IMG/VR virus record: IMGVR_UViG_3300042544_003430 | Reading direction: 5' to 3' (one strand) | From: a virus | Lineage: Duplodnaviria; Heunggongvirae; Uroviricota; Caudoviricetes | Length of the DNA: 64,000 nucleotides | Shown: positions 3,304 through 23,401 of the stretch, in pieces | Numbering within the stretch: the first letter of the stretch is position 1 | How the letters are laid out: each line of letters opens with the position of its first letter | Notes under the pieces: generated by a model | What the model was told of the DNA's origin: nothing | Databases searched by the model: none | Seen by the model: only the letters and a program-made list of their open reading frames with translations | Position numbers and translations under genes: made by a program

Positions 3304-4131
3304 ATGAAGCACTTGCAGACATATAGCATCTTTGAATCCAAGACGGTACTGACTGAAGACCAGGAGACGTTCTTGTCTCTCTTCGTCGAACCTCTTGAGA
3401 ATTCGAAGGGGATGCCTGGGACTTGGTCCGTCAACCCAAAAACCGGCTTGGTTGACGTCAATGGAAACTTTGAGTGCCCACAAAGGGGATTGAAGGACTT
3501 TAAGGGAATCTCCTTTGGCCATGTGAGTGGAGCCTTTGACTGCGATCGAAACGAACTTGTCAGCTTGAAGGGTGCACCTCAGTTGGTGAGAGATTTCTCC
3601 TGCGATCGAAATGACCTTGTCAGTCTCGAGGGAGCACCTCAGTTTGTCAGGGGAGGCTTCTACTGCAACACCAATAGGCTGAAGAACTTAAAAGGTGGCC
3701 CGGTAGAAGTGGGAGGGGATTTCTCCTGCGTTGGCAATGACCTCAAGACCTTGGAGGGAAGTCCAAGAACGGTGGGAGGGGATTTCTACTGCTATTCAAA
3801 TTCAACTTCTCTTATCTCTTTAGCAGGGGCTCCAGAAACAATCGGTGGGACTTTTCACTGCGACTGGTTTGAACTTTCCAACTGGGGGGTTCCTGGCCTG
3901 CTGGAGACCATCAAGAAGGTCAACCCCAAAGCTCAGAAGATGATTTTGGACCTCCTGACTCCTGAGAAAATACAGCAGACGATTGACAGAGAGCCTGAGA
4001 AGATGGCTGTTGAATTAAAGGGGGTTTGGAAGACCCTGAAGGCGGATCCAAAATATGCAGGGCTAAAATTTCCAGAAGGAATCCAAGGGGATGCAGAGAT
4101 GCTGTCAGACCTGGACGACGTTGGTCTTTAA
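3304..4131 (+). CDS. MKH/VGL family protein with about 7 BspA-like leucine-rich repeats, C-terminal DLDDVGL
   Basis: Start set at the MKHLQTYSIFES ATG. Clear 22-aa tandem repeats of the form FxCxxNxLxSLEGAPxxVxGD. Ends ...LSDLDDVGL. Confidence 0.6.
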   Translation: MKHLQTYSIFESKTVLTEDQETFLSLFVEPLENSKGMPGTWSVNPKTGLVDVNGNFECPQRGLKDFKGISFGHVSGAFDCDRNELVSLKGAPQLVRDFSCDRNDLVSLEGAPQFVRGGFYCNTNRLKNLKGGPVEVGGDFSCVGNDLKTLEGSPRTVGGDFYCYSNSTSLISLAGAPETIGGTFHCDWFELSNWGVPGLLETIKKVNPKAQKMILDLLTPEKIQQTIDREPEKMAVELKGVWKTLKADPKYAGLKFPEGIQGDAEMLSDLDDVGL

Positions 4132-8482: not shown

Positions 8483-9310
8483 ATGAAAAAACTATTAGTC
8501 GTTTTAATGGCACTATTCACAGTCTTAACAGCAAGTGCCAAGTGTGATTTTTCTAAAGTTAAAGTTCAACAATGGAATCAAGGAGTCTATTATAAATGGT
8601 ACACTTCAGGATGGGAAGTAGATTCTTGTAAATCGATGACCTTTCTTCTATTTGATTACCAAACCCAAAAAACCGATACACTATTTAGCTTCAGGGGTAT
8701 TGTTGAAATTGCCTTTAATGCACCAGGTTCTTATAAACTTTACATTAAGCTATCTGACAGATGCAATAAATGTGATACCGCGATTTATCGAATTGTAGAA
8801 ATTCAAAGATGGTACCCTAAAGCAATGTATACTGATAAGTTTATTACCTGTGATAGCTTAGTCGGCGAAATGGGAATTATATCTAACATTAAAGACACCT
8901 GCTACAGCTATTATTACACCATATATAGTGGAAATGAGTTAGACGAATTGACTAAGAATGATTGGGGAGCTATGAAAGATCGAGATTTGATCGATTATTA
9001 TTCTTTTTCACTTGATGACATTCGATATTCTTCTTCCAATTCTAGAAGGATTAATTATAAATTCCCCAACGAAGGAAGATTTTTGATGGTAACCCAGTAC
9101 TATAATAAATGTAATAACCAAGATACTTTCTTTCTAAGAAGATATAATATTGACTGCAGTACAACAGGGATTACATCCATCACTAAACAGGAACCTAAAC
9201 TAATAGGTATGTTTGATGTCTTGGGAAGACCGGTTACGTACGTTCGAGAAAATGAACTTGTAATCTACCTCTACAGTGACGGTACATACAAAAAAATAAT
9301 TAGGAACTAA
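8483..9310 (+). CDS. secreted Cys-rich protein
   Basis: Start chosen at the internal ATG giving the signal peptide MKKLLVVLMALFTVLTASA. Several Cys pairs. Confidence 0.45.
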   Translation: MKKLLVVLMALFTVLTASAKCDFSKVKVQQWNQGVYYKWYTSGWEVDSCKSMTFLLFDYQTQKTDTLFSFRGIVEIAFNAPGSYKLYIKLSDRCNKCDTAIYRIVEIQRWYPKAMYTDKFITCDSLVGEMGIISNIKDTCYSYYYTIYSGNELDELTKNDWGAMKDRDLIDYYSFSLDDIRYSSSNSRRINYKFPNEGRFLMVTQYYNKCNNQDTFFLRRYNIDCSTTGITSITKQEPKLIGMFDVLGRPVTYVRENELVIYLYSDGTYKKIIRN

Positions 9311-9358: not shown

Positions 9359-9375
9359 TGTTTATTATTTACTGA

Positions 9376-9384
9376 CCGTATATT
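9376..9384 (+). promoter_or_regulatory. motif A upstream of 9407
   Basis: ctgaCCGTATATTtactaaataataaatc. Confidence 0.5.
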
Positions 9385-9406
9385 TACTAAATAATAAATC
9401 AAAAAT

Positions 9407-10615
9407 ATGTTAATCTGGCTTTGTCTACTAATTCCTCTCATTGGAGCAATCGTTCTTCTTAAATGGTACAAACACACCCTAGTCTGGTGGGAAGTTCTAG
9501 TCCCTCTAGTTTCCTGCTTCTTCTTTATCCTAATCTTCAAATTCACAGTTGAAAAGATTCAAACCAGCGACACCGAGTATAAAGGTGCTCTCATAGTTGA
9601 AGCTAGATACTACGAGTACTGGGAAACTTATGTTAGAAAAACCTGTTATAGAACTCATAAAGTAGGGAAGACAACTATTACAACTTCCTATGATTGTTCT
9701 TATTGCGATCACAATCCGGAACACTGGACGATGATAAATTCTTTGGGACAAGAATTCTCTATTACCAAGGAACACTACGAAAAATTAAGAAAGCTCTGGA
9801 ATTCTACCCCTCAATTTTTAGAATTGAACCGTAGTATAAACCACAGCTTCTTTGGATGCGGTAAGGATGGAGATGCATACGTAATCAAATGGAATTTAAA
9901 TCCTTTGACCTCCAGATCTACCACGGAATCAAACACCTACGACAATAGGGTTCAAGCTGCACATTCTGCTTTTGATTTCTTAGAAGTATCTGAGGAAGAT
10001 GTAAAAAGATATAAACTATTCGAATATCCAGAAATTAAAGGTTACACCCAAGAGAATGTATTAGGTCTAGATTCTATGCCCTATATTCCAAAAAGTAAAA
10101 TTGACACTTTCAAAATTTTAGCTCATTATTTGAATGGAAAGCTAGGTCCAGAAAAACACGCCAGAATTTATTTCCTCTTCTTTGAGGCTAAAGATCAGCT
10201 AACAGCATCCATGCAAGAGGCTTACTGGGACGGAGGTAATGATAACGAATTGGTTATCTGCATAGGAATAGATCCGAAGACTCAGAACCTAAACTGGGTA
10301 AAACCCTTCTCCTGGACTCCTAATCGACAAGTGATACCGGAAATCCGAGAGGAGATTATGGAAGTAGGTAAATTTGATCCGGTAGCAATTTCTAACCGAG
10401 TGGAGGGTGTGGTTAGATCCAAATACAAAAGAAAAGACTTTAGAGAATTCTCTTATCTGACAGTAGATCCTCCAGCTTGGTCTATCTGGGTTACCGCAAT
10501 TCTTACCGCAATTATTACCTTCTTATTATCCAGATGGGCGGCAATCAACGATATAGGTAACGATGGAGATATGTCAGGAGACTTTTTTAGCAGAAAGAGA
10601 ACTTACAGATGGTAA
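9407..10615 (+). CDS. membrane protein (N- and C-terminal TM segments)
   Basis: MLIWLCLLIPLIGAIVLL and VPLVSCFFFILIF at the N-terminus, WSIWVTAILTAIITFLL at the C-terminus. Confidence 0.45.
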   Translation: MLIWLCLLIPLIGAIVLLKWYKHTLVWWEVLVPLVSCFFFILIFKFTVEKIQTSDTEYKGALIVEARYYEYWETYVRKTCYRTHKVGKTTITTSYDCSYCDHNPEHWTMINSLGQEFSITKEHYEKLRKLWNSTPQFLELNRSINHSFFGCGKDGDAYVIKWNLNPLTSRSTTESNTYDNRVQAAHSAFDFLEVSEEDVKRYKLFEYPEIKGYTQENVLGLDSMPYIPKSKIDTFKILAHYLNGKLGPEKHARIYFLFFEAKDQLTASMQEAYWDGGNDNELVICIGIDPKTQNLNWVKPFSWTPNRQVIPEIREEIMEVGKFDPVAISNRVEGVVRSKYKRKDFREFSYLTVDPPAWSIWVTAILTAIITFLLSRWAAINDIGNDGDMSGDFFSRKRTYRW

Positions 10616-10632
10616 TTAGACTATAATAAGAA

Positions 10633-11223
10633 ATGGCAACAATAAAAGATAAGTGGCACTGGAAATTACAAAGATGGGTTAAACACGATTTACCCTATCT
10701 GCATCTAGAATTTGCAAGGGGAATTAAAAACCTATGGAGATGGTTTCCTGTCATTTGGAAAGACAGAGATTGGGACGATCACTACATCTTTGAAATCCTG
10801 AAGACCAAGTTGAAGAACCAAGCAGAGTACATCGGAACTAGAAACATTCACACTAGAGCAAAGAGAGATTCTGAGATAATGCTTCTTTGTGCTAGATTGA
10901 CGGAAAAGGTTCAGGAAGAATTTTATTCAATGGAATACATGGACTACCACGAGTCAAGATACAATTGGATCGACTCTGAAGATTTTCCAGATTCCAAACA
11001 ATTAGAAATAGAGGAAATTTCTGAGAACTATGACGAGTATCTTGCAAAACACAAATTGGCAGTAAAAAGAGTTATCTCTGATCCTAAGCATCAAATTTTC
11101 AAATTGACAGAGGATGACTATAAACAAAGACTAGCGATGAACGTCTCCCATTATAATCACAAAAGAGCAAGAAAAATTCTTTTCGAATTAATGGAAAGAA
11201 ATATTGAGGGCTGGTGGGATTGA
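10633..11223 (+). CDS. hypothetical protein (Trp-rich, 196 aa)
   Basis: ORF only. Confidence 0.4.
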   Translation: MATIKDKWHWKLQRWVKHDLPYLHLEFARGIKNLWRWFPVIWKDRDWDDHYIFEILKTKLKNQAEYIGTRNIHTRAKRDSEIMLLCARLTEKVQEEFYSMEYMDYHESRYNWIDSEDFPDSKQLEIEEISENYDEYLAKHKLAVKRVISDPKHQIFKLTEDDYKQRLAMNVSHYNHKRARKILFELMERNIEGWWD

Positions 11224-11643
11224 GCAGATTTCGTACCCTATATATGATATATAAATTGAATAATATTTACATATCAAGCCAAGAAAAAAACATCTACTCA
11301 TTATATTTAAAAAACAACCTGCACAATTACTAAAAAATTTTATATTGGGATTCTTTCTACATCTATTTTGGATGATGGATATTTAGGATCTGGAGTAAAA
11401 TTAACCAGATCTGTTAAGAAATATGGAAAATACAATCACATTAAAGAAATTCTAGAATACTTGAGTGATAGAGAGTCTTTATTATAATAAAAGAATTATT
11501 AGTAAACGAAGATCTAATAAATGATCCATTTTGTATGAATTTAATAGTAGGAGGAAATTTTTCGGGGCTCAATTATCGTAAAGAACACACCGAAAAAACT
11601 AAAAATAAAATTTCTTCTAAATAAAGGGAAAATAGAAAAAATT

Positions 11644-14600
11644 ATGGCTCAAAAGTATTTGAGCAAAGCTTTGGCTTTCGCTTTAACCTTGTTTGCAACA
11701 CAAGGAAATCTTCATGCAGCATGCGGGAATCTCACACCGAGTTTCAGTAATGCATCCAACAAAACCTGTGGTATACCTCAGGTAATTACACTTACCAATA
11801 CTTCCACTGGAAACAGTCGAAATGTAGCCACCTACAAGTGGTATGTGGGTACCACACTGCTGAGCACACAAGTTGGCAAATCCACCCAAAAATACACCAT
11901 CAACACTGCAGGTAGCTATACCTTCAAGTTGGTGGCGATAGATACGGGTAAGGTGGGCTGTAAAGACAGCACAAGCACTACCATTACCATTTCGGCATCT
12001 GTTCCGAGAATTTTGGATGGCAATAGAGTAAATACCTATTCTCCCATTTGGGAAAATTGTATAAGTTCATTGGGGGTTCCTGACACCTTTGGTATAAATA
12101 TCAAACCTCAGGATTCATTGCGAAATTACACCATAGTTTGGGGGGATGGCACCGGTAATTCTACTGGCACTTTACTGCTTAGCAGCCAATCCCTCTACCA
12201 TAAGTATAATTCACTAGGACAATTTACTTTATTAATCATCGGAACAAAGGGAAGTTGCACTGATACCCTTCGAGGTGTGGTGTCGAATGAAAGAAATCCT
12301 GTGGCTGGAATTGTGGGTCCACCAACAGGAACCAATGCAGGTTGTGTGCCCATTCGCATGCGTTTTATCAATAACTCTTCCTTAAGCTCACCTAGCACCA
12401 CTTTTACCTGGGATTTTGGCAATGGCGAAACCATAGTAAGGGGATTCAATACCCACAAAGACACTTTATTTTATACCTATAAGCGCTTTTTGTGTAATGG
12501 CATCGTGAAACTTACTCAAACCAATAATTGTGGTTCGAGTTTTGCCACCTGGAACCCAATCATGGCTTCCTCTAAGGATACTGCCATTATTGCGCCGACC
12601 AATCCGACCAACTGCGATCTTGCTGTACCTTTTACGTTTAACAATACCTCTCAAAATCGTTTTTGTAGCACGCCAAACAATAAGAAATACCTCTGGGTTT
12701 GGGGCGACGGAACCAATTCTGGTTGGAGTACTTCTTCTGCTTCGCAGTCTAAAACCTACAGCAAGCGCGGTGTGTACCAGGTCTTGCTGATTGATTCAAA
12801 TGGCTGCGGTAAAGATACTGCAAGGTATACCTTGCGTATCGATAGCATGCCTACCATTTCTGCAGGCCCAGCGTCGGCTGCAGGATGCTCACCTTTGGTG
12901 GTAAACTTCAGAGACAACAGCATAAATGCAACTTCTAGAAATTGGGATTTTGGATATGCAACACCAACAAGCAGTGCGCAAAACCCAACCCATACCTATC
13001 AAACAGGTGGTACATATAGAGCAGTGCTGACAGTAGCCAACAATTGTGGATCATTAAAAGATACTGTCCTTATTACTGTCAAACAAAAAGTAAAGGCAAA
13101 CTTCAATACACCGCTTACTGGCTGTGCTCCATTAACACAGAAATGGACCAATACATCTGTCAAAGGATTGGCAGGAACCCCTACATATTTCTGGGATTTT
13201 GGGGACGGAACAACTTCTACCCAGGTGAATCCTCCAGATAAAACTTACTCTACGTTAGGGACATATACCATTACACTCATTGCTACAGACTCATGCGGTA
13301 AGGATACCATTAAAAAGACGTTTACCGTCCGTGGTAAGCCCTCTGCTACAATTACTTTGTTATCTTCAAGCCGGTGTGTGGGCAGCACTTTAGATATTCG
13401 CTTTGTAACCTCACCCGTAAATACAGCTTCAGTTATCTGGGGTGATGGAACCAATGGCAGCAGTTATTTCGGATTGGGTGGTTCAGTTGACCGCACGGTT
13501 TCCAGAAAATACGACAGTCTGCGCACCTACAGATTTGGGGTAGTTATGGTGGATCCAAGCGGTTGCCGAGACACCAATTACCTAAACATTGCAATGGATC
13601 CAAGGCCTACGATGAACTATACCTACACCACAACCAATGGTTGTGGTCCTTTGGATGTTACATTTACCAATACCAGTGCGCACAATGGAGGGGGTAACAT
13701 CAACCAAATGAAGTTCTTATGGAACTTTAGTAATGGTATATTGGCTTACAGCAAAGATACTGCAGCTAGGTTCTTGCCGTTTAAAACAAGAGACTCTATT
13801 TATCCCGTTAAATTAATTGGAACAAACGCCTTTGGCTGCAGAGATTCCATTACCAAAACGGTTCGAGTTTATCCAAAACCATTGAGTAAATTTAGTATTA
13901 GTGAAAAGGATGGTTGTGCACCTTTGGATATTACTACTACGAACAATTCTACTCCATATGACACGGGTTCTATAAACATAATGAAGTTTATATGGGACTT
14001 TGGCAACGGCAGGAAAGCGTTTGGTAAAGATACTGCTGCTCGATTCTTAGCCAGTAAAACAAAAGATACTGTGTATACTGTTAGTCTGATATCTATTTCT
14101 GAACATGGTTGCCGAGATACCAGTTCAACCACAGTGCGTATTTATCCAAAACCTAAAGCCTTATTTACCAGAAGTAAAACTGAAGGTTGCAAACCACTCG
14201 GGGTTACCTATGTCAACCAAAGTGTACCCTACGATACCGGCAATATATCAATAATGAGTTTTGCTTGGGATTTAGGAAATAGAATTACCTCATTCGCTAC
14301 AGAACCTGTGGGTATCTATAATGATGCGATAAACAAAGATACTACTTATAAGGTACGTTTGATTGCCACTAGTGAGCACGGATGCAAGGATACTGCAAAT
14401 TCCACTGTACTGTTACATCCGAATCCGGTGATTAAATTTGATATGAGCCGCACCAATGGCTGCGGTCCATTGCCTGTGAGCTTCTCGAACAAGAGCATCA
14501 ACGGCGATGCATTTACTTGGGAGTTTGGCGTATATGGAACTGATACCGCAAAGAGTCCTAGTAAGGTATTCTATGGCCGCGATATTTTTGACTCAGTAGT

Positions 14601-16737
14601 AGTGGTGAAGCTTAGCGCGATGAGCAAATTTGGCTGCTTGAGTGATACGCTAAAAGACGAAGTGACGGTTTTTGGATTACCTATTGCCAACTATCTAGTT
14701 TCAACAGATACCTTCTGTTTCCCTGACCTGACGCAGTTTTTGAACCAAAGTTTGGCTTCCTACAACTACACTTGGGATTTGGGCGATGGCACTGTAACAG
14801 GAACTACAAACCCCAAACATTTCTTCAAGAAAAGCTCAAGTCCATTTAGTGATACTACCTATTTCATCAAACTTGTTGCTACAAGCCCTTACGGATGTAA
14901 GGACACCGCAAACGGCAGTATGACCGTATTGCCTTACCCTATTCCAAAATTCAGTGTTGACAATCCTGCGGGTTGTGCGTCACACACAGTGAAGTTCAAC
15001 AACCAGTCGGTAAACGTGTTGAATTACCTGTGGGTATTTGGAGATGGATATACATCAACCGATGTGAACCCTACCCATACCTTTATAAATACCGGTGCGA
15101 ATGATACGGCGTATCAGGTTGTTCTTTATACCTACTCTTTGGATTGTGTAGACTCTACTAGTATTTGGATACCAGTTTACAAGCCCTCGTATTCATTCTT
15201 CAGAACGGACCGGGTAAATCCATGTGATGCTGGATATTTTAAATTCCAGAGCTTTGGCGAAAATGCGCCAATTGTGAAGTACAATTTTGGTGATGGTAGC
15301 ACATCAACTTTTCCCAACCTAACGCATTTATTCCCAACCTCACCTTACACCGATACAAGCTTCATCGTTACACTATACACCACAAGCAATCGCGGTTGCA
15401 CAGACAGCTTTAAACGCACAGTTACGCTCCCACAGCGACTTTCTATCGGAATGAAAGACACCAGTTATGCGCTATGTGCTCCGACGGTAATTCAGTTTAC
15501 AAACTACACAAGGGGTGCACGCACATATATTTGGGACTTTGGAGATAATGGAGGAAGTTCTCAGAAGAACCCAATTTATGAATACCAAAAACCGGGCTTA
15601 TACGCATATAAGTTGTTTGCCTTTGACGCAAATGGGTGTATTGACAGTCAGGTTTCAAACGGCACTGTTCGTGTGGATGTGAGTCCTAAAGCGGATTTTG
15701 ACTTTAGTCCTGGTAAAGGCCGCATGCCAAATGACAACCGTATTTTCTTTACTGACAAGAGCCGCAGTGTGATACCACTGACCTATTTCTGGGATTTCTC
15801 GGATCCAGCGGGTATACCTGCAACGAGTACGATTCAAAATGCAACCCACGATTTTAGCGACTCTGGAGACTATAAAATCTGTTTGACGGTAGATAATGGG
15901 GGTTGTAAGAATATATTTTGCAATTTTGTACGCATCGATCCGGCATTTCCAACCCCAGATTTCTCGGTGGGTGGGGATTCGGGTTGCCCACCTCTTACCG
16001 TGCAGTTTACCAACCTTTCTGTGAACTCTGACCGCTATATATGGTTCTTTGGTGACGGTGAAAGAAGCGAGGACAAAGACCCAGTCCATACCTATAAGTA
16101 CAGCGGATATTACGACGTGATTTTGATCGCAAAAGGTCCAGGGGGTGAGGGTAAAACGGAGAAGAAGCAGTTCATAAAAGTATTGAATGCACCATTCACG
16201 TATTTCAATCTCACGCCCTCTATATTGTACCTTCCTGATGCCAAATTCACAACTCGAAACCTGACTACTGGAGCTGTAGGATATCAGTGGAATGTGTACA
16301 ACAGCAGCACTAGAAATCGAGTTGGGAATAGCCTTTTGGTGAATCCCTATTTCCAAGTAAACGATACGGGGCATTATGATGTGGAATTGATTTCAGTAAG
16401 CAGTCAGGTCTGTTATGATACCCTATTGTTGCCCAAGCCCATCTACGTGAATCCACGTGGCATATTGCATGTACCGGATGCCTTCACACCTACCAATGAT
16501 GAACGCAACGATGTGTTTAAACCAAGCGCGATAAACGTGCAAAAGGATTTCTATCTCTTCCAGATCTATAACAGATGGGGTGAAATCGTATTCGAAACCA
16601 AAGACCCCGATGAGGGTTGGGACGGCCGTAAAAAGGGCAAAATATGCCAAAGTGGAGTCTATGTATATAAAATCAATGCAAGACTCTTCAGCGGGGATGA
16701 TATTTCAGCGGATGGTGTGGTTCACTTGATTCGATAG
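11644..16737 (+). CDS. giant secreted PKD-repeat protein with Bacteroidota type-IX secretion (gliding-motility) C-terminal domain
   Basis: Signal peptide. Many repeats of the form W(D/V)FGDG..S....P.H.Y...G.Y.V.L (PKD-like). C-terminus VPDAFTPTNDERNDVFKP...YNRWGEIVF...DPDEGWDGRKKG...GVYVYKI resembles the T9SS type-B CTD. Confidence 0.7.
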   Translation: MAQKYLSKALAFALTLFATQGNLHAACGNLTPSFSNASNKTCGIPQVITLTNTSTGNSRNVATYKWYVGTTLLSTQVGKSTQKYTINTAGSYTFKLVAIDTGKVGCKDSTSTTITISASVPRILDGNRVNTYSPIWENCISSLGVPDTFGINIKPQDSLRNYTIVWGDGTGNSTGTLLLSSQSLYHKYNSLGQFTLLIIGTKGSCTDTLRGVVSNERNPVAGIVGPPTGTNAGCVPIRMRFINNSSLSSPSTTFTWDFGNGETIVRGFNTHKDTLFYTYKRFLCNGIVKLTQTNNCGSSFATWNPIMASSKDTAIIAPTNPTNCDLAVPFTFNNTSQNRFCSTPNNKKYLWVWGDGTNSGWSTSSASQSKTYSKRGVYQVLLIDSNGCGKDTARYTLRIDSMPTISAGPASAAGCSPLVVNFRDNSINATSRNWDFGYATPTSSAQNPTHTYQTGGTYRAVLTVANNCGSLKDTVLITVKQKVKANFNTPLTGCAPLTQKWTNTSVKGLAGTPTYFWDFGDGTTSTQVNPPDKTYSTLGTYTITLIATDSCGKDTIKKTFTVRGKPSATITLLSSSRCVGSTLDIRFVTSPVNTASVIWGDGTNGSSYFGLGGSVDRTVSRKYDSLRTYRFGVVMVDPSGCRDTNYLNIAMDPRPTMNYTYTTTNGCGPLDVTFTNTSAHNGGGNINQMKFLWNFSNGILAYSKDTAARFLPFKTRDSIYPVKLIGTNAFGCRDSITKTVRVYPKPLSKFSISEKDGCAPLDITTTNNSTPYDTGSINIMKFIWDFGNGRKAFGKDTAARFLASKTKDTVYTVSLISISEHGCRDTSSTTVRIYPKPKALFTRSKTEGCKPLGVTYVNQSVPYDTGNISIMSFAWDLGNRITSFATEPVGIYNDAINKDTTYKVRLIATSEHGCKDTANSTVLLHPNPVIKFDMSRTNGCGPLPVSFSNKSINGDAFTWEFGVYGTDTAKSPSKVFYGRDIFDSVVVVKLSAMSKFGCLSDTLKDEVTVFGLPIANYLVSTDTFCFPDLTQFLNQSLASYNYTWDLGDGTVTGTTNPKHFFKKSSSPFSDTTYFIKLVATSPYGCKDTANGSMTVLPYPIPKFSVDNPAGCASHTVKFNNQSVNVLNYLWVFGDGYTSTDVNPTHTFINTGANDTAYQVVLYTYSLDCVDSTSIWIPVYKPSYSFFRTDRVNPCDAGYFKFQSFGENAPIVKYNFGDGSTSTFPNLTHLFPTSPYTDTSFIVTLYTTSNRGCTDSFKRTVTLPQRLSIGMKDTSYALCAPTVIQFTNYTRGARTYIWDFGDNGGSSQKNPIYEYQKPGLYAYKLFAFDANGCIDSQVSNGTVRVDVSPKADFDFSPGKGRMPNDNRIFFTDKSRSVIPLTYFWDFSDPAGIPATSTIQNATHDFSDSGDYKICLTVDNGGCKNIFCNFVRIDPAFPTPDFSVGGDSGCPPLTVQFTNLSVNSDRYIWFFGDGERSEDKDPVHTYKYSGYYDVILIAKGPGGEGKTEKKQFIKVLNAPFTYFNLTPSILYLPDAKFTTRNLTTGAVGYQWNVYNSSTRNRVGNSLLVNPYFQVNDTGHYDVELISVSSQVCYDTLLLPKPIYVNPRGILHVPDAFTPTNDERNDVFKPSAINVQKDFYLFQIYNRWGEIVFETKDPDEGWDGRKKGKICQSGVYVYKINARLFSGDDISADGVVHLIR

Positions 16738-16788
16738 ACTATCTGTGTAACAAGATGGCATAATGAAAATTGTAATAATAAAAATTGA

Positions 16789-16797
16789 CCGTATATT
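16789..16797 (+). promoter_or_regulatory. motif A upstream of 16804
   Basis: ttgaCCGTATATTtataaaATG. Confidence 0.5.
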
Positions 16798-16803
16798 TAT
16801 AAA

Positions 16804-17154
16804 ATGGCAATAAAATACAAAGAGTTTAAAAAGAAATTACAAAACGAACCCCTAACCGAAGAGGAATTAACCATTATTCAGGAGACAGAAGATTATATTG
16901 ACTCTGAAATTCTAAACCAATTTCCGAAGAGCAATTACGGAGAGGTTCTAATTGATTTGACTTATCCGTCTTTTACCTACTCTCATCAAAGAGGTTCTTT
17001 GATGGACTCAAATTCATATAGAAGATCCTTGATGAGATCCGAATTAGAAAAAAGATACAAATCAGCCGGATGGAAGATAGAGGTTAAATTCGACGATGGA
17101 CTGGATGGACCTAATATGTCCGGTCCAGATTATTGGATATTAAAAGGAAAGTAG
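16804..17154 (+). CDS. hypothetical protein (116 aa)
   Basis: ORF downstream of motif A. Confidence 0.4.
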   Translation: MAIKYKEFKKKLQNEPLTEEELTIIQETEDYIDSEILNQFPKSNYGEVLIDLTYPSFTYSHQRGSLMDSNSYRRSLMRSELEKRYKSAGWKIEVKFDDGLDGPNMSGPDYWILKGK

Positions 17155-17156
17155 GA

Positions 17157-17165
17157 CCGTATATT
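17157..17165 (+). promoter_or_regulatory. motif A upstream of 17181
   Basis: ggaCCGTATATTtataaaaataacaatATG. Its position argues that the Prs-like gene starts at 17181, not 17133. Confidence 0.5.
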
Positions 17166-17180
17166 TATAAAAATAACAAT

Positions 17181-18083
17181 ATGTTACAATTAAATTTAGC
17201 AGACTCAGATAAGTCACAGATCAAATTTAAACCATCTGCATTTCCAGACGGCCAGCAATCAATCACTTTAGCTCTGTCCACAATCTCAGATCTAGAAATA
17301 TCTTGCACAATCAAGTCCAGATTAAATTCTTTCAGGGATTTAGAACTCATAGTCTGCGCAGCAGCTGCATTGAGAGAAGCTGGAATGGAAAGAATTCACC
17401 TTTATATTCCATACTGTCTAGGCGGAAGATCTGACATCAAATTTGAAGAAGGTGGCTTAAACTACATCAAGAGTGTAATTGCACCTATCATCAATTTACA
17501 AAAATTTACTTCTGTTACCGTCATGGATGCTCACTCGATAGCTCTAGAAAATTGCATTGATAATTTGAAAAAGCTAGACAATTCTTATCTTGCAAAATGG
17601 GCAATCAAGGATCTATCTTCAGAAGGAGGAGATTTCAAATTGGTCTCTCCTGATGCTGGAGCACTAAAGAAAATATTCTCAACAGCTAAATCTATCGGAT
17701 ATAAAGGAGAAATAATAGTTGCTGAAAAAGTTAGAGATTTATCTACCGGAAAAATTATTCACACCAAGGTACCTATAAACGTTTATGATGCAGATAAAGA
17801 TTTTATCATTATAGATGATATCTGTGACGGTGGGAGAACATTCATAGAAATCGCCAAGGCTATAGAAGAAATGAGATCTTTAAGTTCAGTGGTTCATCCA
17901 GATAAGCACGGAAAAAATTACCTTATCGTAACTCACGGCATCTTCAGCGCAGGATTTGAAGAACTTAGTAAATATTTTGATAGAATTTATACCACCAATT
18001 CTATCTCCGAAATAAACGAGTCTGAAAATTACAAAGGTGCTGAATTTGATAAACAATTTGTTAAACAACTAAACGTATTCTAA
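17181..18083 (+). CDS. ribose-phosphate pyrophosphokinase (PRPP synthetase) family protein
   Basis: PRPP-binding loop IIIDDICDGGRTF, overall Prs-like layout. Start trimmed to the ATG after motif A. Confidence 0.6.
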   Translation: MLQLNLADSDKSQIKFKPSAFPDGQQSITLALSTISDLEISCTIKSRLNSFRDLELIVCAAAALREAGMERIHLYIPYCLGGRSDIKFEEGGLNYIKSVIAPIINLQKFTSVTVMDAHSIALENCIDNLKKLDNSYLAKWAIKDLSSEGGDFKLVSPDAGALKKIFSTAKSIGYKGEIIVAEKVRDLSTGKIIHTKVPINVYDADKDFIIIDDICDGGRTFIEIAKAIEEMRSLSSVVHPDKHGKNYLIVTHGIFSAGFEELSKYFDRIYTTNSISEINESENYKGAEFDKQFVKQLNVF

Positions 18084-18084
18084 A

Positions 18085-18558
18085 ATGAAAGAAACACTAG
18101 AATTGAGAATGTATGGATTAGTTCCATATAACTTAAGCCCCATCCAGCAAGGGATCCAATTTGGACACGCAGTTGTTGAGTATGGGTTAACCCATTTCGG
18201 AGAAAAAAATTACCGGGATTGGGCTAACAATCATAAGACCTTTATCATTCTCAATGGAGGGACTACTAATAATTCCATAGATAAAGAAACAGGAAATCCA
18301 AAAGGAACTTTAAATCAGCATGCGGTAAACCTTAGAGATATGGGGATTCCTTTTTGCACCTTTTATGAGCCTGACTTAGGGGATCAATTAACAGCAGTAG
18401 TTTTTCTAGTAGACGAACATGTCTTCAACAGAGAAAAATATCCGGATCCAAGAGATCCATTTAATCAGGATTGGGCTTGGTCTGAGCATCTTAGCACAGA
18501 AGAACTTTCTAGAGTTTTGCAAATGAGAGACTTTTTAAAACAATTTAGATTAGCATAA
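18085..18558 (+). CDS. PTH2-family (peptidyl-tRNA hydrolase 2-like) protein
   Basis: Q.GIQFGHAVVEYG ... W...K.FIIL ... GIPF..F.EPDLG..TAVVF follows the PTH2 pattern and resembles the 30204 gene. Confidence 0.4.
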   Translation: MKETLELRMYGLVPYNLSPIQQGIQFGHAVVEYGLTHFGEKNYRDWANNHKTFIILNGGTTNNSIDKETGNPKGTLNQHAVNLRDMGIPFCTFYEPDLGDQLTAVVFLVDEHVFNREKYPDPRDPFNQDWAWSEHLSTEELSRVLQMRDFLKQFRLA

Positions 18559-19079
18559 TGGAATCATACTCAGAAATAGAAGGAGATTTAATCTCATTAG
18601 CAAAGCAAGGTAAATTTGAAGTTATCACCCATGGATGTAATTGCAGATCCCAAATGGGAGCAGGGATTGCACCACAAATGGCAAAAGCATTTGGATGCGA
18701 TAAATTCGAAATGGAAACTTGGGGTCCAACTATCGAAAAATTAGGCTGCATAGATTATGAAACTGTAGTTCTAGGAGAAAATGCAATCTGGAGTCTTCTG
18801 GATGCTAAAAATAACCGAAACGAACCTGAATTGGCCGTTGTTAATTCTTACACCCAAAACTACTACGGAAAGAATCACTCAGATGGGGTTTCCAAACCTT
18901 TAGACTACGAGGCTTTAACCCTTTGCATGAGGAAGATCAATTCTACCTTTAGAGGCAAACACATAGGAATGCCAAAAATAGGAGCAGGATTAGCTGGAGG
19001 AGATTGGAACAGAATAAAAAAAATCATACAGACCGAATTAAAAGACTGTAAAGTAACTATAGTAATATACAACAAATAA
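18558..19079 (+). CDS. macro domain protein, Poa1p-like (ADP-ribose-1''-phosphate phosphatase family)
   Basis: ITHGCNCRSQMGAGIAPQMAKAF matches the Poa1p-type motif HSCNC..WGGGIAYQ. Confidence 0.55.
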   Translation: MESYSEIEGDLISLAKQGKFEVITHGCNCRSQMGAGIAPQMAKAFGCDKFEMETWGPTIEKLGCIDYETVVLGENAIWSLLDAKNNRNEPELAVVNSYTQNYYGKNHSDGVSKPLDYEALTLCMRKINSTFRGKHIGMPKIGAGLAGGDWNRIKKIIQTELKDCKVTIVIYNK

Positions 19080-19099
19080 ATTAAATAAAATAAAATATC

Positions 19100-19459
19100 A
19101 TGGACAATCAAATTGATGAAATGACCGGAACCTTGGAAGAAATGAAAGGTGCATTCGTAGGCTCTTTAGTGCGTAACAACAAAAAGATCCGCGAAGACAG
19201 AGCAATCGCAATCGCAGAAGCTGCTCAAATGCTCTACAAAAGAAAAGTTGAGGACACAGAATTAGCTATTAAACAGCTAAAAAGAGAAAGAGAATCTATG
19301 TTAGACCTTAGTCCAACAACAGCAGATTCTTTGGTAATGGCTTCAGATTTTGACGCAGAAGCTTTCATCCAAAAGGATGTAGAGATCGGTCTCAAAATTA
19401 GAAATTTAGAGATCACTCTAGAAATTGCAAGAACTCGTTACAACCACTTATTTGAATAA
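19100..19459 (+). CDS. hypothetical coiled-coil protein
   Basis: Heptad-rich 119-aa ORF. Confidence 0.35.
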   Translation: MDNQIDEMTGTLEEMKGAFVGSLVRNNKKIREDRAIAIAEAAQMLYKRKVEDTELAIKQLKRERESMLDLSPTTADSLVMASDFDAEAFIQKDVEIGLKIRNLEITLEIARTRYNHLFE

Positions 19460-19464
19460 TCCGT

Positions 19465-20346
19465 ATGGGAAATTCAAGTTATTCTACCTATAATAGATCC
19501 ATCAGATCCGAATCTTTTGGCTATCATAGCAAATCAAGAAACGAGATCTTTACCCAAAGTAAAGAGGGTAAAGCTCACGAGCAAATGAGACCTAAAGGAA
19601 TCGTCTACAGAGAATGTAGAGATTCCGAGGCTCACCCGAATGCTACCCCGATTCAGCTTTATTTGGACGTTACCGGAAGCATGGGACATATTCCCCACGA
19701 AATGATTAAAGACGGTTTACCAACTTTAATGGGGAATCTAATTCAAAGAGGTGTAGAGGATGCTTCCCTTATGTTTGGAGCTATCGGTGACCACGAATGT
19801 GACAAATCACCTCTCCAAGTTGGACAGTTTGAATCTGGTGACGAAGAATTGGACATGTGGCTTACCAGAACCTGGCTCGAAGGCGGAGGTGGTGGAAACG
19901 GCGGAGAAAGCTATCCATTAGCTTGGTATTTCGCAGGAAATCACGTTGCAACAGATGCTTGGGAGAAGAGAAACCAAAAAGGATTCGTATTCACTATCGG
20001 TGATGAGCCTTTCCTTAATTCTCTACCAATGTCTGCAGTAAAGGAAATCATGGGGGATTCAGCATCAGGCCAATCTACTTGGGATGCTACAGTTCTTCTA
20101 GAACAAGCTCAAAAGACAAATCACGTTTTCCATATCTTCTTAGAACATGGTTACAGAAAAGTTGATTCGGCTTGGAAAGAATTAATGGGAGATCACCTTA
20201 TAGTTGCAAAAGACTATAAAGATATCCCGAAAATTATCTCAGAAACAATTTTAACTATTCAAGGGGAAAGAAAACCTTCTGAGAATGCGACCGTATATTC
20301 TAGTAATACTACAGATGAAAAAGACTCTGTAGATATTATCCTATAA
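19465..20346 (+). CDS. von Willebrand factor A (vWA) domain protein
   Basis: MIDAS-like LYLDVTGSMG motif. Confidence 0.5.
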   Translation: MGNSSYSTYNRSIRSESFGYHSKSRNEIFTQSKEGKAHEQMRPKGIVYRECRDSEAHPNATPIQLYLDVTGSMGHIPHEMIKDGLPTLMGNLIQRGVEDASLMFGAIGDHECDKSPLQVGQFESGDEELDMWLTRTWLEGGGGGNGGESYPLAWYFAGNHVATDAWEKRNQKGFVFTIGDEPFLNSLPMSAVKEIMGDSASGQSTWDATVLLEQAQKTNHVFHIFLEHGYRKVDSAWKELMGDHLIVAKDYKDIPKIISETILTIQGERKPSENATVYSSNTTDEKDSVDIIL

Positions 20347-21404
20347 TGAATACGAGCAAAATAGTAATTGGACTAAACTACGGAGACGAAGGAAAGGGGT
20401 TAACCACCTCTTTCCTCTGTTCCCAATCTAAAAATCCCATCGTTGTTAGATTCAACGGGGGTCACCAAGCAGGTCACACAGTATCCTTCAAAGGAAAAAG
20501 ACATGTGTTTTCTAGCTTTGGATCAGGAACACTTCAAAAAGTTCCAACGTACTGGAGCAAATATTGCACATTCTCTCCGACAGCATTTCTAAATGAATTA
20601 AAATTTCTACTGGATAAATCTTTAAAATTCCCAGGATTTTATCTTGATCCTTTATGTCCAATCACAACACCTTACGATTTATACAGCAACCGAAAAGATT
20701 CCCAGAATGTGAGTCATGGAACAGTCGGGGTAGGATTTGGATCAACTCTTAAAAGACACGAAAACTTTTATAAGCTTTATGCACAGGATATGTTCTATCC
20801 AGAAGTCTTCAAAGCAAAATTAGAAAACATTGCTAAGTATTACGGAATGGAGGATCTCGAAATCGATAACTTTTTAGAAGACGTAACAATTGTAACTACT
20901 ATAGTTCAATTGACAAATGAAAAAGTTCTTTTAAATTATTCAGATGCTATATTTGAAGGGGCTCAAGGGGTTCTTTTAGATATGGATTTTGGATTTTTTC
21001 CAAACGTTACCAGATCTAATACAACATCTAAAAATGCACTGGAAATTTCTCCTCTGCATTCAAACGAAATCTACTACATCACAAGATCTTATTTAACTAG
21101 ACACGGAGCTGGATTTCTTCCAGGAGAAAAAGAACTTCCCCTAATTAATAATGAATTGGAGACAAACGTCTCTCATGAATACCAAGGAAATTTTAGAACA
21201 GCAGATTTAGATTTGGATCTTCTAAACTATTCTTTAAAATGTGACTCTCATTTTTCTGAGGGTCAAACCAAAAATCTAGTAATTACCTGCATGGATCAAT
21301 ATCCAATAGATGTAGAAAAATTGCTAGAAAAATTAGAAATTAAATTCAATAAAGTGTTCGTCTCTTACGGGGATTCACTTGATAAAATACAACAATTAAA
21401 ATGA
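20346..21404 (+). CDS. adenylosuccinate synthetase family protein, short form (PurA/PurZ-like)
   Basis: GDEGKGL, GGHQAGHT, FEGAQGVLLDMDFGFFPNVTRSNTT and LTRHGAGFLPGE match PurA P-loop and switch motifs. Only 352 aa. Confidence 0.75.
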   Translation: MNTSKIVIGLNYGDEGKGLTTSFLCSQSKNPIVVRFNGGHQAGHTVSFKGKRHVFSSFGSGTLQKVPTYWSKYCTFSPTAFLNELKFLLDKSLKFPGFYLDPLCPITTPYDLYSNRKDSQNVSHGTVGVGFGSTLKRHENFYKLYAQDMFYPEVFKAKLENIAKYYGMEDLEIDNFLEDVTIVTTIVQLTNEKVLLNYSDAIFEGAQGVLLDMDFGFFPNVTRSNTTSKNALEISPLHSNEIYYITRSYLTRHGAGFLPGEKELPLINNELETNVSHEYQGNFRTADLDLDLLNYSLKCDSHFSEGQTKNLVITCMDQYPIDVEKLLEKLEIKFNKVFVSYGDSLDKIQQLK

Positions 21405-21874
21405 AAATAACAGAAAAATATGTCTTCTTTTGGAACGGGATTTATTCTCAGTGGCACAAAGCAAAAATGACAATCGACGGTGTTGAGTATAGCTCTTGTG
21501 AGCAATATATGATGCATCAAAAAGCTATCGTCTTCAGCGACTTTTATATTGCATCTCAGATACTTCTGACAGAGAATCCGAAAGAGCAAAAAGCACTCGG
21601 AAGACAAATTCAAGGGTTTGATAAAAACATTTGGGATTCGGTTTGCTTGAGCATAGTCTATAAAGGAAATCTAGCTAAATTTTCTCAAAATGAGGATCTA
21701 AAATCAGATCTTCTTTCCACCGAGAATAGAATCCTGGTAGAAGCTTCACCCTTGGATCAAATTTGGGGAATTGGAATGGCAGAGGATCATCCAAATATAG
21801 AATCTCCAGAACACTGGAGGGGACTGAACTTGCTTGGATGGGCGTTAAACTTAGTAAAAAAAGAATTAAATTAA
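21401..21874 (+). CDS. NADAR / YbiA (DUF1768) domain protein
   Basis: FFWNG.YSQWH...EYSSCEQYMMHQKA...ALGRQIQGFD...W...VYKGNLAKFSQN..L...LL.T....LVEASPLDQIWGIG is the YbiA/NADAR signature. Confidence 0.75.
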   Translation: MKITEKYVFFWNGIYSQWHKAKMTIDGVEYSSCEQYMMHQKAIVFSDFYIASQILLTENPKEQKALGRQIQGFDKNIWDSVCLSIVYKGNLAKFSQNEDLKSDLLSTENRILVEASPLDQIWGIGMAEDHPNIESPEHWRGLNLLGWALNLVKKELN

Positions 21875-22114
21875 ATGAAAAGTACAGAATTTGCATATTG
21901 GTTACAAGGGTTCTTCGAACTTAGCGAAACTAACACCTTGTCGGAAAGACAGGTCGAAACTATTAAAAATCATTTGAAGCTGGTTTTCTATCATGAGATA
22001 GATCCTTCCTATTCTACAGATCCTGTAGTACAGGAAACCATGCAAAAAATTCACGACGGAGAACCTCAAAAGAGAACTCCGAGAAATTCTAACCCAAGAA
22101 CTATAAAATGTTAA
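21875..22114 (+). CDS. small hypothetical protein, tandem paralog A
   Basis: Shares the YWLQGFFEL...Q...IK..L...F pattern with the next ORF. Confidence 0.35.
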   Translation: MKSTEFAYWLQGFFELSETNTLSERQVETIKNHLKLVFYHEIDPSYSTDPVVQETMQKIHDGEPQKRTPRNSNPRTIKC

Positions 22115-22377
22115 CCATGGAAGAAACAAGAAATTTTGTTATCTGGCTTGATGGATTTCTAGAAGCTTGCGGGCCAACTCCAACTAAGGAGCAGGTCGAA
22201 AAAATAAAATCCAGGCTGAATGGAATTTTTGAGCATGTTGCAGAAATCCCAGCTAAGGAGAACGAAAAACCGTCTCTAGAGGAATTAGGACAAGAACATG
22301 GATTTAATGTATATCCCGGATTTCCTGGATCAGGATTTCCTTTTAGAGATGAAGGTGGTGGTTTATTAAGATGCTAA
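22108..22377 (+). CDS. small hypothetical protein, tandem paralog B
   Basis: VIWLDGFLEAC...EQVEKIKSRLNGIF. Confidence 0.35.
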   Translation: MLTMEETRNFVIWLDGFLEACGPTPTKEQVEKIKSRLNGIFEHVAEIPAKENEKPSLEELGQEHGFNVYPGFPGSGFPFRDEGGGLLRC

Positions 22378-22722
22378 ATGAGTAGAGTAATTTATATAGC
22401 TTCTCCTTATTCTAATCCCGACCCTGATGTTACCGAGGAGAACTTTAAAAAAGTCTCGAGGCTTGCGGCTAAGCTTTGCTCAGAGGGTCAGGTTGCAATT
22501 TCCCCTATTACTTATGGTCACACGCTGGTTGGATTTAAACCAATGCCAATTGACTGGCCATTCTGGGAGAATTTTTGTCTTTCCATTCTCCAGGCTTGTG
22601 ACGAAATCATAGTTTATAAAATGGAAGGTTGGGATAGATCGAGAGGTGTTGCAGAAGAGGTCGAATTTGCCAGAAGAAAAGGAATCCAGATCACGTATAT
22701 GGAATATGATCCTTCTATCTAA
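22378..22722 (+). CDS. nucleoside 2-deoxyribosyltransferase-like (DUF4406/Rcl-fold) protein
   Basis: VIYIASPYS N-terminal motif typical of the family. Confidence 0.4.
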   Translation: MSRVIYIASPYSNPDPDVTEENFKKVSRLAAKLCSEGQVAISPITYGHTLVGFKPMPIDWPFWENFCLSILQACDEIIVYKMEGWDRSRGVAEEVEFARRKGIQITYMEYDPSI

Positions 22723-22731
22723 CCGTATATT
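22723..22731 (+). promoter_or_regulatory. motif A upstream of 22748
   Basis: taaCCGTATATTtaaataaaatacctttATG. Confidence 0.5.
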
Positions 22732-22747
22732 TAAATAAAATACCTTT

Positions 22748-23191
22748 ATGGAATTAAGAGAATATTTCGAAACAAATCCGGACTCTATCCCTTATCTAGA
22801 AAGACTAGAAAGTGAATGGGAACAGTATGGAAAGATAATCATCGGATGTGATTATGACGACACAATTTCCCCATGGAAGATGGAGAATTTTAATCCAGAA
22901 AGGGTTCTAGAAGTTCTAAAGGTTGCTAGAGAAACCGGAGCTTACATCGTAATCTTTACTTCTTGTGACAAAGCAAGATATCCAGAAATCGAAGACTATT
23001 GTAAAAGCATTGGCCTCACAATCGACTCGATCAATAAAAATCCAATCGACTTACCTTACGGTAAAAAAGGTAAAATCTATGCCAACATTTTCCTGGATGA
23101 CAGAGGTGGAATGAATGAATCCCTAAACATTCTAGAAATGGCAACGTATAGAATTAGAGGAAAAAGAAGAGTTTTAGGAATCAACGTATAA
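22748..23191 (+). CDS. HAD-superfamily hydrolase-like protein
   Basis: IIIGCDYDDTIS (DxDxT motif I). Confidence 0.4.
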   Translation: MELREYFETNPDSIPYLERLESEWEQYGKIIIGCDYDDTISPWKMENFNPERVLEVLKVARETGAYIVIFTSCDKARYPEIEDYCKSIGLTIDSINKNPIDLPYGKKGKIYANIFLDDRGGMNESLNILEMATYRIRGKRRVLGINV

Positions 23192-23199
23192 TTAAGAAA

Positions 23200-23364
23200 A
23201 TGAAAATGAACCCAAAAGAAAAAGAATTGGAAAATATCCAATCCCAACAAAACCCTTCAAAAGAGGTTAATCCAACCGAGTCTGTAATAATAAAACAGAT
23301 CGAGGATGATTTTGAATATCAAGAATATTATTCAGAAAATTCTCCTAATTTCGACGTAGATTAA
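23200..23364 (+). CDS. small acidic ORF (54 aa), not in the ORF track
   Basis: ATG at 23200 and TAA at 23362 in a 210-bp gap. Protein-like composition. Confidence 0.25.
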   Translation: MKMNPKEKELENIQSQQNPSKEVNPTESVIIKQIEDDFEYQEYYSENSPNFDVD

Positions 23365-23373
23365 TCAGGAGGA

Positions 23374-23382
23374 CCGTATATT
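23374..23382 (+). promoter_or_regulatory. motif A upstream of 23402
   Basis: ggaCCGTATATTcaataaaataataaatattATG. Confidence 0.5.
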
Positions 23383-23401
23383 CAATAAAATAATAAATAT
23401 T

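Follow-up and report, generated by a model that had tools for sequence, protein, structure and literature searches.

Capture of a Flavobacteriales gene for a predicted type IX secretion cargo protein by a huge phage

In the IMG/VR virus record IMGVR_UViG_3300042544_003430, here called the window (the whole stretch of 64,000 nucleotides that was analysed), the open reading frame (ORF) at 11644..16737 on the + strand raises the question of how a phage came to encode a large repeat protein that ends in a C-terminal sorting domain (CTD) for the Bacteroidota type IX secretion system (T9SS), and whether this gene is still in use. The ORF starts with ATG, encodes 1697 amino acids (aa) and is the largest in the window, and the ORF listing agrees on this point with an earlier reading of the DNA made from its letters alone (the original prediction). 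We found that the gene is a whole captured host gene from a Flavobacteriales chromosome, which lies in the remains of a homing-endonuclease gene at a site that is empty in related phages, and we lean towards the view that the copy still works as T9SS cargo.

The cargo protein and its bacterial orthologues

By ORF call and by its Pfam and NCBIfam matches the 1,697-aa product has the layout of a T9SS type-B cargo protein with PKD repeats. Residues 1-25 (11644..11718, +) form a predicted Sec signal peptide of the signal peptidase I (SPase I) kind, with the positively charged n-region MAQKYLSK, the hydrophobic core ALAFALTLFA (Kyte-Doolittle peak 2.1) and the site TQGNLHA/A, in which L-H-A/A obeys the -3/-1 rule for cleavage. 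This call is a manual reading of sequence features together with orthologue conservation, the same arrangement being conserved in six bacterial orthologues, and it agrees with the signal peptide originally proposed. The passenger (11719..16467, +) consists of ~18 tandem PKD/Ig-like repeats, recognised from Pfam PKD_4/PKD matches and motif periodicity: PKD_4 (PF18911) matches ten stretches (E = 2.6e-93) and PKD (PF00801) five (E = 9.8e-45), while the PKD core W-x-[FW]-G-D-G is found at 17 positions from aa 66 to aa 1549 with a spacing of 83-100 aa. A degenerate copy, YNFGDGS, near aa 1215 brings the total to about 18, in accordance with the "more than 15" PKD-like repeats counted before.

The last part of the protein, aa 1609-1697 (16468..16734, +), is a T9SS type-B CTD by both Pfam and NCBIfam (CHU_C / TIGR04131). 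CHU_C (PF13585, "Type IX secretion signal domain") matches aa 1609-1679 with 56.6 bits against a cutoff of 27, and TIGR04131 (T9SS type B) gives 44 bits against a cutoff of 35, or 49.5 bits when the last 110 aa are searched alone, so that in the comparison with T9SS CTD models that the original prediction had asked for both type-B models exceed their curated thresholds. The type-A CTD model TIGR04183 reached 18.3 bits on this protein, under its cutoff of 23. The match ends at aa 1679-1680 of 1697, i.e. at the extreme C-terminus, and the tail GVVHLIR lines up with the G-x-V-T-L-I-R end of other type-B CTDs. In an alignment of 12 type-B CTDs all 11 invariant and all nine near-invariant columns are kept, and these conserved blocks would correspond to motifs A-E of Paillat et al. 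2025 (PMC12618676), which secretion requires. The structure model of the last 240 aa (pLDDT 91.8) consists of beads of beta-sandwiches; the best PDB matches to its fold were giant adhesins, namely SiiE, the shaft of GhpA and an ice-binding adhesin, and by sequence the CTD has a single relative in the PDB, the GhpA C-terminus.

Database search with this protein gave a family of full-length colinear proteins of ~1,700 aa. All members examined for context share one bacterial chromosomal slot, in which the gene follows those for IleRS, DksA/TraR, LspA, Der and RlmN, with an epimerase, UDP-glucose dehydrogenase and DegT on the far side and on the opposite strand. The slot is kept by orthologues at 91, 75, 69, 68, 68 and 48% identity. 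Within the 90% cluster there is a tighter 97%-identity group, whose member P0125 occupies the same slot on the 237-kb scaffold L012, and a scan of species representatives added L035 (JBEIRK010000018.1, "MAG: Flavobacteriales bacterium"), with neighbours 100% identical to those of L012. The phage protein is 97.05% identical to the L012/L035 copy, and blastn aligned the two at 96.37% nucleotide identity over 5128 nt with no gaps. In composition, too, the gene (GC 0.432; GC at third codon positions, GC3, 0.418) is close to the host copy (0.436 and 0.423) and away from the phage background (~0.366 and 0.327, with a GC3 standard deviation of 0.07). Because of the 96.4% nucleotide identity to a gene in conserved bacterial synteny and the host-like GC and GC3, we conclude that this is a whole host gene captured from a Flavobacteriales chromosome. 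The original prediction, which saw a domain merely resembling a host CTD, therefore fell short: the whole gene is 96.4% identical at the nucleotide level to a host core gene. No further matching part was found when the rest of the window was compared with the host loci.

In bacteria (loci L012, L003-L007 and L199) the orthologue is fixed between rlmN and polysaccharide genes, just downstream of lspA, and it is a conserved, uncharacterised "orphan" type-B T9SS substrate of this Bacteroidota group. Two other candidate observations were rejected. The difference between 1751 and 1697 aa in length is not real, as it comes from an upstream start miscall in the bacterial records, and P0019, from a 659-kb contig, is not a second phage capture, as the place returned for it, a 92.6-kb contig, shows the same bacterial synteny.

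The phage and the insertion site

The original prediction also took the gene to be phage-encoded, and this holds by phage-only PHROG families, by jumbo-phage relatives and by junctions identical in four assemblies. Genes neighbouring the ORF strongly match the phage-only families phrog_30579, 14850, 1017, 24229 and 1383 (the last one "virion structural protein"), and among them are auxiliary genes of large phages: NAMPT, phosphoribosyl pyrophosphate (PRPP) synthetase, an adenylosuccinate-synthetase-like gene, tRNA nucleotidyltransferase, a Lon-like protease and HNH endonucleases. Among deposited phages those most closely related are LR745206, a metagenomic phage of 635 kb, and jumbo phages such as RsoM2USA, XacN1 and Tenacibaculum pT24. 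In the work of Al-Shayeb et al. (PMC7162821) all genomes larger than 634 kb fall in the "Mahaphage" clade, for which Bacteroidetes hosts are predicted. The neighbour gene g402 has 21 IMG/VR relatives on viral contigs of 220-434 kb, and one colinear phage relative sits on a 400-kb contig. The window is part of a jumbo or huge phage. Megablast of 25 kb against 50,697 phage records gave no match, and scans of the window for tRNAs and with Rfam gave nothing of use for host assignment. At least 13 contigs carry the exact protein. Both junctions are the same in four independent assemblies, which come from different samples and agree at 100% identity over 13-21 kb. Samples with the phage are JGI 3300042863 and 3300042473, SRR27335588 and SRR27419058; the two JGI numbers belong to a series that also has MAGs labelled "ME2000/ME2001 ... 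Rohwer", and one freshwater time series may be the common source.

The gene lies between the jumbo-phage gene g196 (10633..11223, +; assigned by homologue search and synteny) and g116 (16804..17154, +), the orthologue of which is found directly 3' of g196 in the phage loci L195-L198. Two blocks of the window, 9365-11223 and from 16784 on, align colinearly with L195-L197 (82-85% nucleotide identity), where they are contiguous. In L195-L198, the closest phage relatives, the g196 stop is directly followed by the GACCGTATATT motif and the start of g116, with no insert; owing to these empty sites the insertion is lineage-specific. From the comparison with L195-L197 the insert amounts to 5,565 bp (11224..16788, +) and consists of an endonuclease remnant, the host gene and a 36-nt AT-rich tail 3' of the host segment. 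It is accompanied by the 5-bp direct repeat ATTGA, the left copy of which (11219..11223, +) overlaps the g196 stop codon, as seen against the empty sites L195, L196 and L197, and the right copy of which (16784..16788, +) was likewise placed by empty-site comparison. Host-derived DNA, delimited by blastn to L012/L035, spans 11625..16752 (+; GC 0.431 against 0.363 in the phage background), i.e. from 19 nt 5' of the ATG through 15 nt 3' of the stop codon. A terminator-like hairpin and T-run, which in the host lie just beyond the end of homology, are left out of the phage copy.

The left 401 bp of the insert (GC 0.25) are non-host DNA. They contain, at 11311..11621 (+), a frameshifted and truncated pseudogene of a GIY-YIG-type homing endonuclease, which matches phrog_314 in two frames: frame 1 (11311-11484) covers positions 183-242 of 574 with E = 5.5e-13 and frame 3 (11484-11621) positions 248-297 of 574 with E = 1.4e-3. 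When joined, the two frames match phrog_314 with E = 3.8e-19, and the reading frame ends where the host DNA starts. Pfam, including GIY-YIG, had no match to the joined remnant. Phage relatives have an intact 207-aa GIY-YIG gene of the phrog_314 family at another site, and tblastn with this gene also matches the remnant. The 420 bp upstream of the ORF thus hold a dead homing-endonuclease gene, neither an active member nor a regulatory spacer. Of the "420-bp AT-rich non-coding region" originally described (11224-11643), the gap and the AT-richness (GC 0.25) stand and the term non-coding does not, as an endonuclease pseudogene is found there. In the simplest history a free-standing homing-endonuclease gene would first have occupied the g196/g116 junction, and the host ORF would next have replaced the middle of that gene through illegitimate recombination. 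Intact or unbroken homologues of the endonuclease are present in L196-L198, L028, L183, L139, L134, L173-L181 and L158, in several cases beside type-B CTD genes.

The motif in front of g116 recurs in the window. In the form GACCGTATATT[CT] it has 13 copies where 1.4 are expected, each of them on the + strand, where it precedes a start codon by 11-35 nt (positions 285, 629, 6943, 7865, 9377, 16790, 17158, 20292, 22724, 23375, 27558, 30051 and 43969), and it is probably a phage promoter or leader element. The copy belonging to g116 (16788..16798, +), identified through this motif count, was spared by the insertion.

Donor lineage, base-level breakpoints, empty site and a dead homing-endonuclease landing pad together make this a rare fully resolved capture of a host gene by a phage, and the uncultured huge phage can be assigned to one particular host lineage within the Flavobacteriales.

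Export, maintenance and competing explanations

Between the phage gene and the closest bacterial copy the rates of nonsynonymous and synonymous substitution are dN = 0.0138 and dS = 0.120 (dN/dS = 0.115), with no stop and no indel across 5,091 nt. Polarised by the 91% orthologue, the phage-side branch has 44 synonymous and 16 nonsynonymous changes and the bacterial branch 45 and 7; under neutrality ~151 nonsynonymous changes and several stops would be expected on the phage-side branch, against 16 and 0 seen. In the alignment the translation start is remodelled (11634..11648, +), since the host ATG has become ATA and a new ATG has arisen four codons downstream (ACG ACT to ATG GCT). This start region has four substitutions in 13 nt (P = 0.0013 given 3.55% overall divergence), as if translation initiation had been repaired or adapted. 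From residue 3 on the signal peptide is the same as in the host, and of the 89 CTD residues two are changed (N1656D and M1667I). Given the dN/dS of 0.115, the lack of stops and indels, the recreated start codon and the intact export signals, the captured copy is likely still functional.

It is known that T9SS cargo requires a Sec signal peptide and a CTD, that PorP/SprF-like shuttles, usually encoded just downstream, take type-B CTDs out of the translocon, and that "orphan" substrates of Flavobacterium johnsoniae, which have no linked shuttle, share one shuttle (PMC12618676). We built a PorP/SprF hidden Markov model (HMM) from genes downstream of distant bacterial homologues and verified it as PF11751 (204 bits). 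Over 1.7 Mb of phage loci it matched in L155 only, a 43-kb uncultivated virus genome (UViG) whose identifier suggests that it was cut from a bacterial genome. Pfam found no PorP/SprF shuttle among downstream and similar-sized ORFs, tblastn against all deposited phages was likewise negative, also for the complete megaphages LR745206 and LR756502, and the host orthologue loci likewise have no adjacent PorP/SprF gene. By its sequence the protein is best placed in the known sub-class of "orphan" type-B substrates. Near the orthologue, host contigs have a gene for an esterase with a type-A CTD (Por_Secre_tail), and the host is on this account taken to be a probable T9SS user.

These data suggest the following route. 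Phage signals would drive transcription, probably by read-through from g402-g196, and translation would start at the newly created ATG. Sec would export the protein via the unchanged signal peptide, and the type-B CTD would be recognised by the host T9SS together with an unlinked PorP/SprF-type shuttle that serves the host's own orphan copy, so that the protein would end displayed on the surface of the infected cell. As it is 97% identical to the host protein, the same biochemical job is expected of it, namely adhesin-like surface display, and in the course of a long jumbo-phage infection protein made by the phage would add to that made by the host or take its place. The original prediction had spoken of a hijacked host T9SS; routing through this system is the best-supported mechanism, with both export signals intact and near-identical to those of the host, and "hijack" itself is read from sequence. 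Altogether it is somewhat probable that the gene is a recently captured, still functional host T9SS cargo displayed on the infected cell. Candidate benefits are keeping the virocell attached or feeding, or altering its surface towards other phages. The adjacent block of host-like metabolic genes fits an auxiliary role of keeping host functions running, and a 12-kb glycan-synthesis cluster elsewhere in the window suggests that the phage invests in cell-envelope chemistry more broadly. If such type-B proteins of phages are secreted, phages would alter adhesion, gliding or receptor display of infected Bacteroidota, with a bearing on the colonisation of particles, on carbon turnover and on competition among phages. 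As the phage and host alleles differ at 3.6% of nucleotides, or roughly 180 sites, expression of the phage copy is distinguishable in existing metatranscriptomes.

In cyanophages a near-identical host gene, psbA, is kept intact in lytic phages and is thought to sustain host function in infection. The present gene resembles such auxiliary genes as a near-identical host copy, here beside NAD-salvage and nucleotide genes, and differs from them in that its predicted product is no enzyme but a secreted surface protein of 180 kDa, for which two export systems of the host would be needed. The literature searched held no description of type-B T9SS cargo in phages and only two brief precedents of phage T9SS cargo (PMC7468147, PMC6949934), and the paper on huge phages (PMC7162821) makes no mention of secretion, gliding or PKD. 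The first precedent is "Cryophage", which encodes T9SS type-A CTD cargo in variable genome islands (Bellas et al. 2020, PMC7468147). There, as here, a phage-encoded protein with a Bacteroidota T9SS sorting domain, its gene in a variable genome island, is read as host-secreted cargo; however, the CTDs of Cryophage are of type A (TIGR04183; PorV shuttle, PorU sortase and attachment to anionic lipopolysaccharide, A-LPS) and sit on enzymes and a PA14 protein, whereas here a type-B CTD (TIGR04131; PorP/SprF route) sits on an adhesin-like PKD array, and the source gene in bacteria is identified, as are insertion site and empty site. In the second, T9SS sorting-domain ORFs were noted beside crAss-BACON ORFs in gut phages, with their role left open (de Jonge et al. 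2019, PMC6949934). Bacteroidota phages, Ig-like/BACON repeat proteins and T9SS sorting domains are common to both cases, but those ORFs lie near head genes of gut crAss-like and related phages, their CTD type is unspecified, and no host orthologue or capture was described.

Among bacterial proteins the closest parallels are the F. johnsoniae orphans (Fjoh_1123, Fjoh_1720, Fjoh_4934; shuttle Fjoh_1677) and SprB/SprF, which have a Sec signal and a TIGR04131 CTD (PMC12618676). The orphans also share an adhesin-like repeat passenger, no downstream PorP/SprF and the conserved CTD blocks; they are, however, chromosomal and experimentally secreted (Paillat et al. 2025, PMC12618676), while the present protein is phage-borne and its secretion predicted, and beyond the domains they have no orthology to it. 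The "grappling hook" GhpA of Aureispira (PDB 9flp and related entries) matches it in the sequence of the CTD and in the fold of the Ig-like shaft, but GhpA is a giant T9SS-dependent bacterial surface filament of 5,898 aa that serves ixotrophy, and the likeness is at the level of domains only (12-15% identity). The present case extends phage-borne T9SS cargo from two brief reports to type B, the SprB/gliding-adhesin class with its dedicated shuttles, and its new aspects are that the cargo is of type B, shuttle-less, near-identical to a host protein and landed in a dead homing endonuclease.

Several points weigh against a functional, displayed protein. The PorP/SprF HMM has no match in the 64-kb window, and without a phage shuttle secretion would be wholly dependent on a host factor. 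Upstream of the PKD gene the insert has no copy of GACCGTATATT, the nearest one upstream being at 9377, before g402, and the host promoter was not carried along with the captured segment; as neither precedes the gene, its transcription is assumed. The spacer upstream of the gene has no Bacteroidota-type TAnnTTTG element, while scans for sigma-70 promoters (fewer sites than in shuffled sequences) and for terminators (only slightly above shuffles) were not informative. The insert sits in a dead selfish gene, i.e. on a neutral landing pad, and the sampled phage copies are all identical (clonal), with no polymorphism found. Moreover, the phage branch on which dN/dS is based includes evolution in the unsampled bacterial donor, so that purifying selection may pre-date capture. 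Substitutions on this branch are not AT-biased (44 vs 37; p = 0.37) and GC3 is unameliorated, which fits a very recent arrival.

A rival reading is a neutral passenger that reached a dispensable homing-endonuclease gene by recent illegitimate recombination, is unused and has not yet decayed, and the absence of the insert from the closest phage relatives, the host-like GC and GC3, the missing phage promoter motif 5' of the gene, the identity of all sampled phage copies and a low dN/dS possibly inherited from the donor lineage are all in its favour. We nevertheless regard a passenger as unlikely, though not negligible. The captured segment reaches past the ORF by no more than 19 and 15 nt and is without the host terminator, a new in-frame ATG four codons on, amid a substitution cluster (P = 0.0013), makes up for the lost host ATG, and there are 0 stops or indels in 5.1 kb despite ~84 polarised substitutions on the phage-side branch. 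In addition, hundreds of viral contigs keep genes with a signal peptide and a type-B CTD, some of them conserved phage families, which argues that this class of genes is retained.

The same export route could also serve defence, the phage copy being a receptor decoy, a mask or a dominant-negative form that blocks superinfection or the adsorption of progeny to infected cells and debris. In Flavobacterium, mutations in T9SS and gliding motility make cells resistant to phages (PMC9804748), and proteins displayed by the T9SS are therefore of importance for adsorption; roles in competition between strains or in superinfection were proposed for the type-A cargo of Cryophage (Bellas et al., PMC7468147), and the glycan-synthesis cluster would fit surface remodelling on a wider scale. 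The phage branch has about twice as many nonsynonymous changes as the bacterial one (16 vs 7), but this is not significant (Fisher p = 0.10) and the changes are scattered and conservative. No evidence marks the protein as a receptor, and a 97%-identical copy is not obviously different from the host protein in binding. A defensive role is therefore, in our opinion, rather improbable, and somewhat more so than a passenger.

That the protein is instead a virion component, the fibre alternative of the original prediction, is very improbable. The PKD/Ig-like array would then be a carbohydrate-binding fibre or a decoration of capsid or tail, and the CTD just another beta-sandwich. Virions do commonly carry Ig-like domains (Fraser et al. 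2006, as cited in PMC6949934), FN3 domains of the phage lambda tail tip also come up in the fold search, and the gene is three genes downstream of g185 (phrog_1383, "virion structural protein"), a loose proximity. However, the unchanged, cleavable Sec signal peptide would direct the product into the periplasm and so keep it from virion assembly in the cytoplasm; the product shares 97% identity with a surface protein of the host and lacks an attachment domain specific to phages; and it is missing in the closest relatives, which retain the surrounding genes. Its downstream neighbours are metabolic, and the insert lies between non-structural genes that are adjacent in relatives. Finally, an assembly chimera at the junction or a bacterial window, suggested by the gene's foreign composition relative to its surroundings and by its near-identity to bacterial DNA, can be dismissed for practical purposes, as both junctions are the same in the four independent assemblies, the phage allele is ~3.6% off every bacterial copy and has its own start codon, the breakpoints in the homing-endonuclease gene are defined and come with a 5-bp repeat, and the window is otherwise without match to the host loci.

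Type-B sorting domains in other viruses and further features of the window

Type-B CTD genes are also found in other viruses. In the megaphages LR745206 and LR756502 (635-642 kb) four and three places, respectively, match the CTD. Two of these places were examined: one encodes an 832-aa protein with ALK/LTK glycine-rich, Ig_7, PKD and CHU_C domains and the other a 1,670-aa protein with 13 SprB repeats, PKD and CHU_C. A scan of IMG/VR with the type-B CTD alignment gave 330 confirmed stretches, and families and signal peptides are described here from the best 80 of the 330 loci (L115-L194). These 80 contain 83 ORFs with a type-B CTD, nearly all of which start with a signal peptide. One recurrent family, present on dozens of contigs of up to 290 kb, consists of SprB/PKD_6 proteins of ~680-840 aa with the start "...YSQYCPxLGPDQ"; other recurrent kinds are a ~190-aa mini-cargo and SprB/PKD proteins of 1,200-2,000 aa. 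Three type-B CTD genes stand in a row in L193. Since 21 of the CTD loci share other genes with the window within 16 kb, they are argued to be related phages and not bacterial contamination. Apart from L155, no PorP/SprF shuttle was found alongside the viral CTD genes.

We tentatively suggest that large Bacteroidota phages may routinely reprogram the host surface through T9SS cargo without a shuttle of their own, swapped at hotspots rich in homing endonucleases, although we would not put this at even odds. As phages in this scenario never carry PorP/SprF, their cargo would have to compete for or take over host shuttles, possibly the gliding-adhesin track. If it is true, the gene described here would be the first case for which donor gene, landing site and empty site are all known.

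The left neighbour g196 has more than 1300 homologues, on contigs of up to 406 kb and none with a Pfam domain, and its structure model (pLDDT 79) gave generic helical-bundle matches that were uninformative. In about ten viral loci, of at least four independent groups, homologues of g196 lie ~0.2-2 kb from varied type-B CTD genes (among these loci L130, L132, L133, L140, L150, L160, L170, L171 and L186). A functional partnership of g196 with CTD genes was considered, but the closest relatives carry g196 without any CTD gene, and a shared insertion hotspot is a more likely explanation of this proximity than a functional pair.

Some other features of the window are worth describing. Positions 50673-62838 are taken up by a ~12-kb run of glycan-synthesis genes with a GC of 0.25-0.35, among them two GT11 fucosyltransferase-like genes, a GT2 gene, a galactosyltransferase, a hexapeptide transferase, a DegT aminotransferase and a Polysacc_synt_2 dehydratase, by which the phage may remodel surface polysaccharides or glycosylation. 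An origin of these sugar genes from the polysaccharide genes beside the host orthologue was rejected, DegT being only 25% identical. A nucleotide and NAD-salvage cluster at 17133-24931 consists of PRPP synthetase, a hydrolase, a phosphatase, NADAR, a nucleoside 2-deoxyribosyltransferase-like gene and NAMPT, and also includes an adenylosuccinate-synthetase homologue (phrog_1211, annotated as a PurZ-type enzyme), for which a modified-base pathway is possible. A gene for MTHFR is found further on, at 33173-34132.

Besides the captured gene, the ORFs at 1509-4131 (GC 0.47-0.49, GC3 0.56 against a background of 0.33), which have no Pfam or PHROG match, may likewise have been acquired from elsewhere; between these high-GC ORFs is a ferritin-like gene (2465-3076). 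The 275-aa ORF at 8483-9310, without a family match, splits g185 and g402, which are directly adjacent in 21 of 21 IMG/VR relatives and also in L195 and L196, and it is a second lineage-specific insertion. Lastly, at 36159-39703 on the - strand two adjacent ORFs correspond to the halves of the HNH-endonuclease family phrog_1314 (positions 8-209 and 172-392); they adjoin an AAA-type ATPase (phrog_1297), form an opposite-strand island in an otherwise + region, and are possibly a split or duplicated mobile endonuclease.

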